DNA from: Okamejei kenojei
Lineage: Eukaryota
Reading direction: 5' to 3'
Length of the DNA stretch: 64,000 nucleotides
Assembly (NCBI GenBank): GCA_035221665.1
Contig: CM069162.1
Span: forward strand, 9,548,001-9,612,000
The translations under genes and the position numbers were made by a program. Within the stretch, counting starts at the first letter, position 1; each line of letters opens with the position of its first letter. Under the pieces are notes generated by a model that worked only from the letters and a program-made list of their open reading frames with translations, had not been told where the DNA came from and made no database searches. Below are positions 881 to 21,020 of the stretch, in pieces.

Positions 881-1282
881 CCTTCTTTCACCAGAGAACC
901 ACTAGATAGTGTGGGGTTGCTTTGTCATAATTAGAAGAAATTTAGTATTTTAAATCAAATGTAAACTGGCTTGTGCAATTTGGTGATAGTGCACGATGAT
1001 TCCTGGTTCAATATTTTTCATTGCTTATTCATTCGGACAGCTTTGCTCTTCATCTTTCTTTTCATGCTTGCATTTTGATTTTGTGATTTAGATAAGGTTT
1101 GAGGCAAAAATCAAAGCGTAACAATCCTAGACTACATTTGATCCAAATACTTTACAGCATTGCAGTAAAGCCAACGTCTTTCAAAATCTGTAAGACCAGA
1201 CGAAGACTAGAATCAATTCTTCAGCAGACGTCAGCACATGTTCGAATGATGCTTCGGTTGGAGTAATATGAACGAGGGTTGT

Positions 1283-1422
1283 CTTCTTCTTCTTGCGTAT
1301 GGCGTGCACAGCCTAAAGTTGTACGGCAACTTGTTCTATTTGATCTTTTTGTTTGTGCACGTCGGGTTGATTGCATTAGTCGAAACAGGGTGGACCATGT
1401 GAAGGTTGCAATTTCCCACCCC
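1283..1422 (-). mobile_element. 140-bp non-autonomous retroposon with ribozyme head and (GAA)n tail
   Basis: Perfect 12-bp TSD AACGAGGGTTGT at 1271-1282 and 1423-1434. Minus-strand 3' end is ...CGCCATACGCAAGAAGAAGAAG. No tRNA A/B boxes seen. Confidence 0.9.
1370..1422 (-). ncRNA. Minimal HDV-like self-cleaving ribozyme (53 nt)
   Basis: GGGGUGG-GAA-AUUGCA-ACC-UUCACAU-GGU-CCACCCU-GU-UUCGA-C-UAA-UGCAAU. P1 is 7 bp with a G1.U wobble, P2 is 6 bp, P3 is ACC/GGU, L3 is 7 nt, and the catalytic C lies in CUAA. Confidence 0.85.
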
Positions 1423-1894
1423 AACGAGGGTTGTGCTGACTCACCTGTAACTATGCCTTTGGAATTGATTGTTTTGATGCATGGGAAATCCTAAACATAC
1501 ACTAGGATGATACCAACATTCTTTCAAAGGGAGGATTATTGAAAATTGGGCGTATATCTTGTTTGGGCTGTTCTATGACCCCTCAATTACTTAACTAGAC
1601 TAACTGCCCAAGGTAACAATTCCTGTTATCAGGATTCTGATTCAATGTGATAACCACCACAAGGGAGGTGGAAGATGTATGAATGTAAAATCCTGAATTG
1701 AAAACATAGTGAGGATGAAAAAGAAGTTAAAGGAAAAGTTTTCAAATAATTTCCCAACAATTAAAAACAAATCTATAGGAATGAGCCTCTTGCTAATACT
1801 GTGTCTGAGCAAATTAATTGGTTATAATTTGGTTATAGTAATTTATTTATATTTAAAATTCCCTTTTTCTTGAATGACAGAACTAGCTTTTGTC

Positions 1895-17005: not shown

Positions 17006-18541
17006 TAAATAAAACTAGCATGTGGTATCCCCTTCTTTGAATTCTGTCCCCCTCTTTGAAGTTGACGATTATTTGTTTGGTTTTGTTGACTTAGAGTGAG
17101 AAATTGTTGTGTGACACCCCCCTGTAATAATTTAGGCTGGAACAATGTCACTTCCAGTCTGAATTATTACAGTCTGCTTTCCATTCCAAATACACAATGA
17201 ACTCAACTCATCCAAAGCTATAGCCACCAAAATTATGTCCCACGTCGTTGCAGCATTTTTGTTGCTAATCCAAGTCCTCCAAAGTTTGCAATTTTAAATT
17301 TGCAATTGCTGTTTTTGAACCCTTCATTCTCTTTCATTTTATAATCCCCTTTTCCTCTGTCCCTCCATTCCTCCTCTCCTAACCTGCCTTCAAAATTCTT
17401 CTTGCAGCACTGGCTTTTTGTGTGTTGACTCATGATTTGGTGAATCTGCTGTCAATGCAGGACCCACATGGATCCTTAATTTCCTCTGCCTCAGAGATTT
17501 AAGATGCTGTATCCCATGAAAGATTTTTTGATCTATAAATTGCAATAACGCAAAATGTCATGGATATAAATTAGCTATACAAAAAAATTGGAAATTTGAA
17601 ATTAAAGTAGAAAATACTGTAAGTCAGGAGGTCTGGCATCACAGTTAATCTGTTTGTCCACGTGAAATAAAGCTTGTATAAAATGAACGCAATTTTGAGA
17701 AACTTATGGTCTAGGTTGCAACAAAAATTGGTGAGAGAGAGGGACTAATTGCAAAGTAACAAATATATCTGTTACTGAGGGGTCTCTGCTACTGAGAAGG
17801 TAATGGATGGAGGACAAAAATGTTGGCTGAGTATTCTACAAATGTGAGCCTCTATGGTTCTATATTGCTCCTAGAAGCTAATTTGTTAGCCTCTCCAGGG
17901 CTCTCACTTAACTTTTTTTCCCTGTTGACAGCCGAGCAACCTAAGCAGCTTTTTAAGTTGCCAAATGACAGTTTAGGTGGTCATTTAAGACGGCTTGCAT
18001 GACGCGTGCAATAATGTGGTCAGACGAAGTGCGTAGTTACGTCGGAATTATGCTCAATGTAGCATTCACATATTATTTCTGCTTCAAATAAAGTCACAAA
18101 CTAAACATATTCACCAATCAAAACATGATATATACCACAATGACATGCAGCAAAATTATAATACAGTATCTCAACTCTTTTTACACATTGCAATTAATGC
18201 AATTTCTATTTCTTTCCACTGTCAAACAAAAATTGGTTGGATTATTCAGCGTATGATCAACCTGTGTTAATAAATCCTGGATCATGGTAACCATGCACAC
18301 TACAGATTGCTTAACCATGCACACTACAGATTGATGCAAGCATGTTTTCTGTGAAGAACGAAAAATTATCATGACATGGCCATAGCATGGGTTGTTATTG
18401 CTATTGGTACGGAAACACTCTCCCTTCCCACATAATTTATCCACAACAAAATATACAGTTTGCAAGGAATTTTCTCAAGGCATTTTATGATAATAGCTGT
18501 GAAAACCGACTACCCATCTGACAGGTTAAACATTACACTTA

Positions 18542-19199
18542 CAGAGATGCCAAGTGTCCCAGATTCGCCGTATTTTGTCCCGGCGAAATAACCTTTTTAC
18601 GGTGTTCCGGCAGCCAAACATGCTGTTACGGAACACCGCCGCGCCGGTGTTCCTCCCGTGGTGAACGCCGGCGCCATGTGCCCCCGGTTTGCCGGCCTGC
18701 GCGATCAGCGGCACTTTGCCGGGCCCTAGTGTCCGCGCCTGCGCAGTTGGGGAGGGTTGCCGGGCCCCAGTGGCCGCGCGTGCGCAGTGGGGGAGGGGGT
18801 GCCGGGCCCCAGTGGCCGTGCGTGCGCAGTGGGGGAGGGTTGCCGGGCCTGGCGCCATATCGAGCCACGCCACGCCCGGCCCAGAGCCCGGGTGGCGCCG
18901 GCCCGCGCGATCAGCGGCACTTTCTTGCCGCCAGCCGGCCGCTCGCGGCAGCCCCATCACCGGGCCTCCCCCCCACCCCCACCCAGTGCGCAGGCGCAGA
19001 CCCGCCGGCAACCTTGCCAAGTGCGCATGTGCCGCACCCGCCCGCCGGCAGCCCGCTGATCTGCACCAGTGCGCAGGCGCATAGCCGCCGGCAACAACCC
19101 CAAGTGAGTATGTTACGGAGAGAAATGCATTTAACCCCATTTGTTACGGACAAATGGGTTGAATGTTACTGTGAACTAAATTTAGGGTTGGCATCTCTG
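18542..19199. mobile_element. GC-rich non-autonomous DNA transposon (hAT-like MITE)
   Basis: 12-bp TIR CAGAGATGCCAA / TTGGCATCTCTG, flanked by CACTTA on both sides (18536-18541, 19200-19205). Subterminal TGTTACGGA repeats and internal ~39-bp GC repeats. Confidence 0.85.
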
Positions 19200-19909
19200 C
19201 ACTTACTGACAAGAGATGGTCAAAGGACATAACTGCAGCAAATGTTCTTTTGGTAATATGTTTAAAGGTGTCAAAACGCCACATTACCGGACATTCCGGT
19301 TAGGTGTATGTGCTGTGAACAGCAATGAAGATACCCAGTTTGTACGCACCAGATTAAAAAAAAATTATTGATAAATGCTGTTTCCATCATTCCCACTTCA
19401 GAATTAACGTTAAAATTTCAACTGAAATATCTCCTGACGAAATTTGTGATGTATATGACCGACTGTAGAAGTAAAACCTGGATAAATCCAACGTATAGTT
19501 GTGAATGTTGCTCAATAAATAACAGCACTGTTACTCCATATTAAGAGCATTAACTTGCCGTTAAAATTAATTCTGTAATAACGTGTCAACGGTAGCAGTG
19601 ACAATCCAACATTTCACGAGTTAACAATTTAATTAATCCATCTTTATGGATTAAAACAAATAATAACATTGTGAATTAAAACATATTTGATTGCATTCCA
19701 TTATCAAACATAGTCAATGTTCCCTCTGAAGACATTTCCAGCACAATAGGGTCGGGGGTGGGATGGTGTGAATCAGTGCGGGGTAGATAGGTGGGGGGTG
19801 GGGTTGAGAAGGTAATCGTTGCGGAATGGGTGGATTGAGGCAGCGGAATTAGTGCGTGTTGGTTGGAGTAGGTTAAATTGTGAGGGAAGAGCGCGGGGGA
19901 TGTCAGAGG

Positions 19910-21020
19910 AGTTGAATTGGGGGATCAGTACGGGATGGATGGCGGGGATCTGTGCAGGATGGATGGGGGGGGGATCAGTACAGAATGAATGGGGGGGGGG
20001 GGAACCAGTACAGGATGAATGGGGGTAGACAAATGCTGGAGAAACTCATTGGTTGAGGCAGTATATATGGAGCGAAGGATATAGGCAATGTTTTGGGTCG
20101 AGACCCTTCTTCAGACTGATCCCCCCCCCCCCCTCCATTCAAGAAGAATCAGTACAGGTTGGATGGGGCAGGTGGATCAGTGCAAGATGAATGGGTGGAT
20201 CTGACCCCCCCTCTCCCCCCCCCCCCCCCCATTCAGTACTGTGTGGATTGAATGCTACAGGATGAATGGGGGGAATGCTACAGGATGAAAGGGGGAGAAT
20301 CGCTACAGGATGATTGGGGGTGATCGCTAGAGGATGAATGGGGGGGGTTCGCTACAGGATGGATGGGGTGGATCGCTACAGGATGAATAGGCGGATCGCT
20401 ACAGGATGAATTGGGGGATCAGTGCAGGATGAATGGGGGGTCAGTACAGGGTGAATGGGGGAGATCAGTAAAAGATGAATGGGGGTGATCACTACAGGAC
20501 GGATGGGGGGGATCAGTACAGGATGAATGAGGGGATCAGTACAGGATGAATGGGGGGGATTTCAGTACAGGATGAATGGGGGGTAGTCAGTACAGGATGA
20601 ATGGAGGGGATCAGTAAAAGATGAATGGGAAGATCGCTACAGGATGGAGGGGGGATCAGTAAAGGATGAATAAGGGGAATCAGTAAAAGATGAATGGGGA
20701 GATCACTACAGGATGGATGGGGGAGATCGGTGCAGGGTAAATAGAGGGTGGGACAGTATGGGAGGAATGGGGGGGGATCAGTACAGGATGGATGGAGGAG
20801 AAGTGCAGGATGATTTGGGGGACCGGTGTAGGATGGATGGGGAGTGGCAGGAGAATCAATGCGAGGTGGATAGGGAGATCATTGCAGGATTAATAGATTG
20901 GGGGGGGGGTAGGTGAGGAGGGGAGCACAGGGGATGTCAGTGAGGACTGAATAGAGGCGGGAATGGGGATCAGTGCGGGATGGAGAGGAGGGGTCTCAGG
21001 GTAACGGGGGGGGGGGGGGG
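19910..21020 (+). repeat. G-rich minisatellite, ~21-bp unit GGGGGATCAGTACAGGATGAAT
   Basis: Tandem degenerate copies, most regular at about 20250-20840. Interrupted by a PLE fragment at about 20023-20118. Confidence 0.9.

Follow-up and report, generated by a model that had tools for sequence, protein, structure and literature searches.

What fixes the 5′ end of a short retroposon that carries no Pol III head? The question is raised by a mini-retroposon of 140 nt on the minus strand, at positions 1283-1422 of the 64-kb stretch of DNA analysed here (the window). The original prediction, made from the letters alone, had placed it between perfect 12-bp target site duplications (TSDs), which are exact (Table 1), and had seen no Pol III head. 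Our searches agree: neither a tRNA gene nor a Pol III A box was found in the element, and B-like words occur in it only with one mismatch. A classical SINE, transcribed by Pol III from a tRNA, 5S, or 7SL head, was rejected as there is no small-RNA-derived head with A and B boxes. Our answer, which we hold to be quite probable, is that the element derives from a LINE and that its first 54 nt are predicted to fold into a minimal HDV-like ribozyme, likely to have cut just before G1 while the family spread.

Table 1. Features of the mini-retroposon, in positions of the window
Feature	Position	Strand	Basis or remark
5′ TSD, 12 bp	1423..1434	.	same sequence as 1271-1282
3′ TSD, 12 bp	1271..1282	.	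same sequence as 1423-1434
Predicted P4-less HDV-like ribozyme, element nt 1-54	1369..1422	-	descriptor and shuffles; covariation among Vingi heads
Predicted cleavage site, 5′ of G1	1423/1422 junction	-	fold prediction
P1	1422-1416 with 1393-1387	-	G1.U36 wobble; sequence
P2	1412-1407 with 1375-1370	-	5′ strand extends to 1413 (nt 10, A here, G in family)
P3	1406-1404 with 1396-1394	-	sequence
L3	1403-1397	-	G25A at 1398
G37, predicted P1.1 partner of C22	1386	-	sequence
6-nt remnant replacing P4	1385-1380	-	between G37 and C44
J4/2 with candidate catalytic C44	C44 at 1379	-	CPEB3 numbering (PMC4836649, excerpt); C44 invariant in alignment A2
AUG from last A of J4/2 and first two bases of P2 3′ strand	1374..1376	-	first in-frame ORF AUG in parent LINE
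Segment common with 5′ end of parent Vingi-type LINE (nt 1-80)	1343..1422	-	89-97% identity to L124, L156, L160, L161
13-nt junction, unmatched in LINE ends	1330..1342	-	comparison with LINE copies
Segment common with LINE 3′ end (nt 94-140)	1283..1329	-	89-100% identity
LINE-3′-derived final ORF codons and stop, short 3′ UTR, (AAG)n tail	stop 1315-1313, tail 1294-1283	-	
Predicted 8-bp stem linking 5′- and 3′-derived parts	1361-1354 with 1310-1303, span 1303..1361	-	folding, z only -1.5
Inner 6-bp hairpin within linking stem	1332-1327 with 1321-1316	-	folding

Origin from a LINE

Both ends of the element come from one LINE. In a family D copy of 3,044 bp (L124), the first 80 and the last ~47 bases match the mini-element, and other LINE copies of the same genome support both breakpoints at 89-100% identity. 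Of the LINE the mini-element keeps just these 5′ and 3′ ends; it has no coding capacity, and it is bipartite, having arisen from a 3.0-kb Vingi-type LINE by internal deletion. Such derivatives are a described class (Kojima 2018, PMC5786205), and Vingi is one of the four clades known to yield them (PMC5786205). Seen by eye, the junction between the two parts repeats in part the bases just before the breakpoint. Folding weakly predicts a stem that would join the 5′- and 3′-derived parts; it is retained in most copies, with zero two-sided changes in a set of 81. A SINE-like family borrowing the reverse transcriptase (RT) of a LINE had been proposed, with a Vingi or Ingi partner suggested by the 3′ end and a search for an autonomous LINE sharing both ends as a check. 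A LINE partner of the suggested kind exists in the same genome (L124 and the other copies), but the notion of an independent SINE falls, since both ends come from the LINE.

The partner was reached through a Pfam endonuclease search (PF14529), whose matches came for the most part from CR1-type elements and from an unrelated LINE that bears RNase H; only L075, a decayed copy with a similar tail, pointed to Vingi and led to the related LINE families. None of the families A, B, C, E, F, and G matches the mini-element at either end, and all six were therefore rejected as its partner. In other LINE families, long open frames of 1,276 aa (the RNase H-bearing family) and 1,000 aa (CR1-type), found at L042, L054, L061, and L062, suggest recent activity.

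Family D fragments match the Pfam RVT_1 and APE families; a search with the LINE 5′ region gave 197 candidates, and all copies translated are broken. An intact relative of 1,019 aa, P0001 from an ENA contig, has 75% identity in the RT stretch; it shows APE, RT, and a weak zf-RVT match, and no RNase H. Vingi elements are laid out compactly, with one ORF that encodes APE and RT and lacks RNase H (PMC13708176, excerpt), and the partner LINE fits this layout with its 3,044 bp, APE, and RT, the absence of RNase H being read from P0001. In an RT tree built without named Vingi or Ingi proteins, one clade (support 0.996) takes in families A-G together with many elements of a single ORF, and both CR1 and the RNase H-bearing LINE fall outside it. 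To the eye, the 5′ end of Vingi-2_Gav (Kojima 2018 supplement) looks like the head of family F. P0001, P0121, and P0122 are 75-79% identical to family D, and the other Vingi families of the genome only 36-47%; the closeness of P0001 to family D may reflect horizontal transfer.

In 16/30 family D loci (L137-L158), counted by eye, the 5′ arm is inverted relative to the 3′ part, and a large deletion is often present as well. In this sample, chosen with a 5′ query, the inverted arms often extend to nt 1-13, a twin-priming-like arrangement. At L159, a copy of the parent LINE has itself received a mini-element, with a TSD.

The predicted ribozyme fold

The head of the element, which is the LINE's own 5′ end, carries the nested double pseudoknot of HDV-like ribozymes with P1, P2, and P3 in the right order, as judged by descriptor and covariation. 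The three helices, L3, G37, and the candidate catalytic C all lie where the original prediction had put them. A strict descriptor, built from generally known features of the fold, matched once in the whole window on both strands, at 1422, and gave 0/5,000 matches in dinucleotide shuffles of the element and 0 in three shuffled windows. Over loci L001-L180 it yielded one clear chance match (L161), one shifted parse (L121), and otherwise retrotransposon heads. The P4 helix is absent, with 6 nt from G37 to C44, which makes this a minimal HDV-like form. P1.1 comes down to a single possible pair, C22-G37 (C22 in 78/81 copies, G37 in 80/81). The G1.U wobble at the predicted cleavage site has G1 in 70/81 copies and U36 in 72/81, and the catalytic-C position, first in J4/2 and followed by N-A-A, is occupied by C44 in the window copy and in 74/81 copies.

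At nt 10 and nt 25 the window copy has A, where most of the family has G. G at nt 10, found in 79/81 copies, makes P2 7 bp long, and with the majority G25 (73/81) L3 reads UUCACGU. The window copy, with A25, lacks the U20.G25 wobble, which places the catalytic Mg2+ in CPEB3 and HDV (PMC4836649, excerpt). Because G25, the partner of U20 at the Mg2+ site, is A, this copy is by analogy probably impaired (G10A, G25A), being either slow or dead. Its self-cleavage is doubtful, and that of the family is likely.

Comparison with the Rfam HDV and CPEB3 models, proposed in the original prediction, came back negative: the window element and copy L002 gave no Rfam ribozyme match at E≤10, the gathering thresholds of the HDV, CPEB3, and HDV-F-prausnitzii families were not reached by the element, and an Rfam scan of the 64-kb window returned no ribozyme match. 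The minimum-free-energy z-score from ViennaRNA, a program that cannot form pseudoknots, is an unremarkable -0.5. That z-score is the one result that would suit a fold arisen by chance in an ordinary tRNA- or 5S-headed SINE. Such an origin is refuted by the match of the element to both LINE ends; the missing tRNA gene and A box, the shuffles, and the covariation described below also speak against it, and we give it practically no credence.

Copies, 5′ ends, and transcripts

A search of the same genome with the element gave 2,822 candidates, of which 40 were scored, with 94-96% identity excluding the query. A 20-base motif taken from the 3′ part has 5,700 exact matches and its reversed control 0, which puts the family at 5,700 copies at least. 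The initial 30 copies were the best full-length matches and were biased to intact 5′ ends; they were therefore rejected as a 5′-end sample in favour of the first 92 motif matches in order along contig C1, picked on the 3′ motif alone (one of the 92 is, by eye, a LINE 3′ end). In this unbiased sample the 5′ end falls at nt 1 in 65/92 copies and within nt 1-5 in 81/92, so that the expectation of a multi-copy retroposon family with 5′ ends piled at G1 held. The upstream flanks are unrelated: only 2 of 3,240 pairs share at least 11 of 15 bases, one being a local duplication and the other an 11/15 match. The LINE 5′ ends are more ragged, with ~18/30 reaching nt 1-13 and 4 reaching nt 1 (by eye).

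With the local duplicate dropped, the TSD abuts G1 in 55/64 full-length copies. The base at -2 agrees with the TSD in 53 of these 55 and the base at -1 in only 41, the 14 extra -1 bases being T (7), A (5), C (1), and G (1). Over all full-length copies, the -1 base is T in 39/65 and G in 5/65; in the target sequence, T stands at -1 in 32/55 and G at +1 in 27/55. We infer from this junction pattern that RT may add untemplated bases and that joining may proceed by microhomology. As T is at -1 in 39/65 copies, the true RNA start is uncertain by one base. In the targets of L181-L270, A is enriched 11 bases upstream of the 5′ junction (36/65).

About 6% of a raw poly(A) RNA-seq run (X23) from a carrier organism was read. 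It holds 858 reads on the element, of which 249 continue past 1422/1423 into unrelated flank, and among the matches listed no pile-up of read ends was seen at G1 or any other place. As a cleavage test this run is weak: the library is fragmented, ~2/3 of the reads are probably antisense, and most copies are decayed. First mates are ~2 times commoner on the minus than on the plus strand, and given the usual stranded library antisense copies would outnumber sense ones. A contig of run X20 spans the 3′ junction of the window locus with ~7% differences, so the insertion is likely common to another species.

The 5′ end could also be set from within, by a promoter in the first ~80 nt, transcription starting at or one base before G1 and the fold being a second function or unneeded. 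L1Tc and NARTc carry both functions in the same 77 nt, the dual promoter-ribozyme Pr77 (PMC3383444, excerpt). Here the element retains 80 nt, 26 beyond the need of the fold, the T at -1 in 39/65 copies could be templated, and the RNA shows no pile-up of cleaved ends. However, the copying of capped RNA is expected to leave an extra G at -1, and no excess of G is found there (5/65; 1/14 untemplated bases). Moreover, 20/55 TSD-bearing copies lack T at -1, untemplated A is also seen, and a promoter leaves the compensatory changes in three helices unexplained. We therefore regard a promoter in place of the ribozyme as unlikely, although not far-fetched; as an added function beside the ribozyme it is compatible with our reading.

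In the ribozyme reading, a donor copy lying in sense within a host transcript would be transcribed through, and the ribozyme would cut, leaving a 5′-OH RNA that begins at G1. The LINE endonuclease and RT would bind the 3′ end with its (AAG)n tail and copy the RNA to G1 through target-primed reverse transcription, with the RT often adding one untemplated base and joining via T or TG microhomology. Each full-length daughter would thus receive an intact ribozyme and no donor flank, and inserted copies would decay neutrally. In the parent LINE, the same fold would hold the first in-frame AUG and double as a cap-independent translation start.

Divergence in 81 copies is 78/2,416 (3.2%) at paired sites, 23/878 (2.6%) at unpaired sites, and 130/3,451 (3.8%) in the body; this comparison gives no sign that the fold is selected in inserted copies, and all pairs and the core are intact in only 23/81. 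Three ribozyme variants reach the level of subfamilies: one at the unpaired nt 8, one at nt 32 that turns U-A into U.G, and one at nt 45 (CUAA/CGAA). All three leave the pairs and the core intact. G1.U36, U20, C22, G25, G37, C44, A46, and A47 are the majority bases in every subfamily. Five copies (L004-L007, L018; G000:C9:69198415-69206555) lie in a ~2-kb tandem array in which the flanks are duplicated too.

The fold in related LINE heads

Families A, B, C, E, and F have differing 5′ sequences and the same HDV-like fold. Among 18 metagenome relatives in which 150 nt or more precede the endonuclease, 6 fit a relaxed descriptor, for which an antisense control gave 0 matches in 265,960 nt; the other 12 fail it (3 outside the clade, one with a sub-threshold CPEB3 match). 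Eleven heads were aligned with MAFFT (alignment A2), the rows being picked for fitting the fold and the window copy and D counting as the same family. In A2, 98.9% of cells are paired, against 40-55% in slid controls, and 14/17 pairs have changed on both sides. Family G and descriptor-negative elements are excluded from A2, which makes the shuffle control lenient: its 0-1/500 overstates the case since the rows were preselected, but the two-sided changes are plain. The forecast that the pairing of P1, P2, and P3 would be conserved with covariation is thus borne out across related Vingi heads.

A second P4-less, ribozyme-headed mini-element of ~165 bp with TSDs occurs in this genome (family J, L388-L393; e.g., G000:C1:8173675-8173739). 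It has the same P4-less design as the window family and other helix sequences. In all 6 copies, T stands immediately before the G run.

The fold might instead be a relic, P4 and activity having been lost in the parent lineage and the pseudoknot serving to block 5′ exonucleases or to mark an RT stop. The cutting of P4 to 6 nt and of P1.1 to one pair, the lack of an Rfam match for the element, and the absence of visible selection among copies would all suit a relic, and some trypanosome SIDER heads fold well without cleaving (PMC4035085, excerpt). Against this, the core bases named above are the majority in all subfamilies, P4-less ribozymes cleave in vitro (PMC10879173, excerpt), and family J repeats the P4-less design in the same genome with different helix sequences. 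We consider loss of activity in the parent lineage to be quite improbable.

A start codon inside the fold

In the parent LINE, the AUG at the border of J4/2 and P2 opens the ORF: it is in frame in L134, the translation of L160 is consistent with it, and L156 and L131 are frameshifted downstream. The first in-frame ORF AUG has this place in families A, B, and D, and in A and B it is the sole Met ahead of the endonuclease in copies that keep the frame, several copies being frameshifted. Families C and E have ACG at the position. The same in-frame AUG is found in 3/6 descriptor-positive metagenome elements. Further loci that show the ORF AUG inside the ribozyme are L174, L176, L308, L335, and L353, beside the window at 1376-1374. 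An IRES-like role has been proposed for such ribozymes (PMC6765202, excerpt), and an AUG inside the ribozyme would, by analogy, be consistent with it.

Relation to the CPEB3 ribozyme

The element and the mammalian CPEB3 ribozyme (RF00622) share the numbering, the core to nt 38, G1.U36, the single C22-G37 pair, and U38, and the majority of the window family also has the L3 sequence UUCACGU. In contrast, the window element has other P1, P2, and P3 sequences, no P4, and no RF00622 match; the matches belong to the sister families F, H, I, and J. Family F includes a mini-element of ~190 bp with TSDs and 2,339 candidates (L283, L290, L291, L295, L300; e.g., G000:C5:95179810-95179969), and its heads exceed the RF00622 gathering score in 5/5 tested copies (36.8-42.0 bits against 35). 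By eye, its tail is similar to what is called the "unknown 3′ part" in alligator SINE2-1_AMi. When the genome was searched with RF00622, 59 matches were scored and 30 of them exceeded the cut-off, with a top score of 66.8 bits. Families H and I (L376-L387, L405-L412) are retrotransposon heads with scores up to this value; the H heads lead into an endonuclease start, and four of the I heads lie next to inverted Vingi-type coding pieces. Sister heads of the element thus pass the gathering score of an Rfam family of tested ribozymes.

By eye, L377 equals the RF00622 consensus at 44/46 of the first ribozyme positions. The Kojima 2018 supplement prints the 5′ ends of Vingi-2_Gav, Vingi-4_Crp, Vingi-2_SPur, and Vingi-1_BF (PMC5786205); nt 2-74 of Vingi-2_Gav agree with the consensus at 52/54 positions outside the inner P4, and alligator SINE2-1_AMi agrees at 57/66 positions with the P4 stem included (both by eye). 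Such CPEB3-like identity points to descent because the fold leaves its helices free in sequence. Human DNA contains old traces of Vingi, X12_LINE (PMC5753468, excerpt). From these sequence comparisons we think it probable, with some reserve, that HDV-like ribozymes are the standard Vingi 5′ end, P4-less at least twice in this genome and often holding the ORF AUG, and that the mammalian CPEB3 ribozyme is a domesticated Vingi-type 5′ end. The origin of a ribozyme that is among very few in humans thereby becomes directly testable by sequence comparison.

In the searchable literature, CPEB3 together with Vingi gave no true match, the sole match being a false one ("Tvingi"), and the words origin, retro, and transpos are absent from a paper on ancestral CPEB3 (PMC8233481). 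The element itself has no account there by title or abstract start, and "Vingi" is absent from a 2026 preprint on ribozyme discovery. Webb in 2009 reportedly described ribozymes in lancelet and sea urchin. These may be the same Vingi heads, in which case the link may partly be in print already.

Comparison with known elements and ribozymes

Ribozyme-headed bipartite elements are already known in NARTc, RIME, and SIDE. The trypanosome pairs NARTc/L1Tc and RIME/ingi are alike with the present pair in that a short non-coding derivative takes its ends from a LINE. NARTc has ~77 nt at its start and ~30 nt at its end in common with its LINE, and its HDV-like ribozyme cuts before nt +1 (PMC3383444, excerpt); it is the closest model for the mini-element (PMC3383444 and PMC4035085, excerpts). 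The window family differs from NARTc and RIME in its vertebrate host, a partner without RNase H, a length of 140 nt rather than 263, and the absence of P4, and cleavage is here a prediction. Vingi-1_EE, a non-autonomous Vingi, and bipartite LINEs show the same internal deletion with the 5′ and 3′ ends kept. R2 SIDE likewise combines a ribozyme head with a 3′ RT-binding end after an internal deletion (PMC3414825, excerpt), but SIDE is site-specific in rDNA and has an RLE-type partner, whereas the window family is dispersed, with TSDs of ~12 bp.

Minimal HDV-like and theta ribozymes share with the element the absence of P4, the catalytic C as first base of J4/2, and the cleavage site at G1, predicted in our case (PMC10879173, excerpt). 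Nearly 99% of these ribozymes are in phages, beside tRNAs, and the origin and function of the minimal ones are called open in the excerpted text (PMC10879173). In contrast, the window family heads a vertebrate retroposon with thousands of copies. This would give a likely job in a vertebrate genome to a P4-less form reported almost only from phages and with no known eukaryotic role, and it supplies thousands of natural variants to assay.

Three things are new within the searchable papers: the Vingi clade, a P4-less form found in a vertebrate, and a ribozyme that contains the start codon of an ORF. The family may already have a name in Repbase or Dfam. The larger novelty is the clade-wide pattern with the CPEB3 link, above the element alone, and ribozyme-defined 5′ ends would be extended to the Vingi clade. 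Vingi now serves to insert genes into human T cells by RNA alone, with templates that keep the native 5′ UTR (PMC13708176, excerpt), and a self-cleaving, AUG-containing 5′ UTR would bear on the design of such templates.

Surroundings of the element in the window

No host gene was found by Pfam among the 150 longest of the 230 frames of at least 62 aa in the 64-kb window. The sole match among these 150 was ALKBH8_N, and such matches are presumably common in LINE remnants. A CpG-rich island with 100 CpG in 2 kb lies at 18001-20000 and is possibly a promoter.
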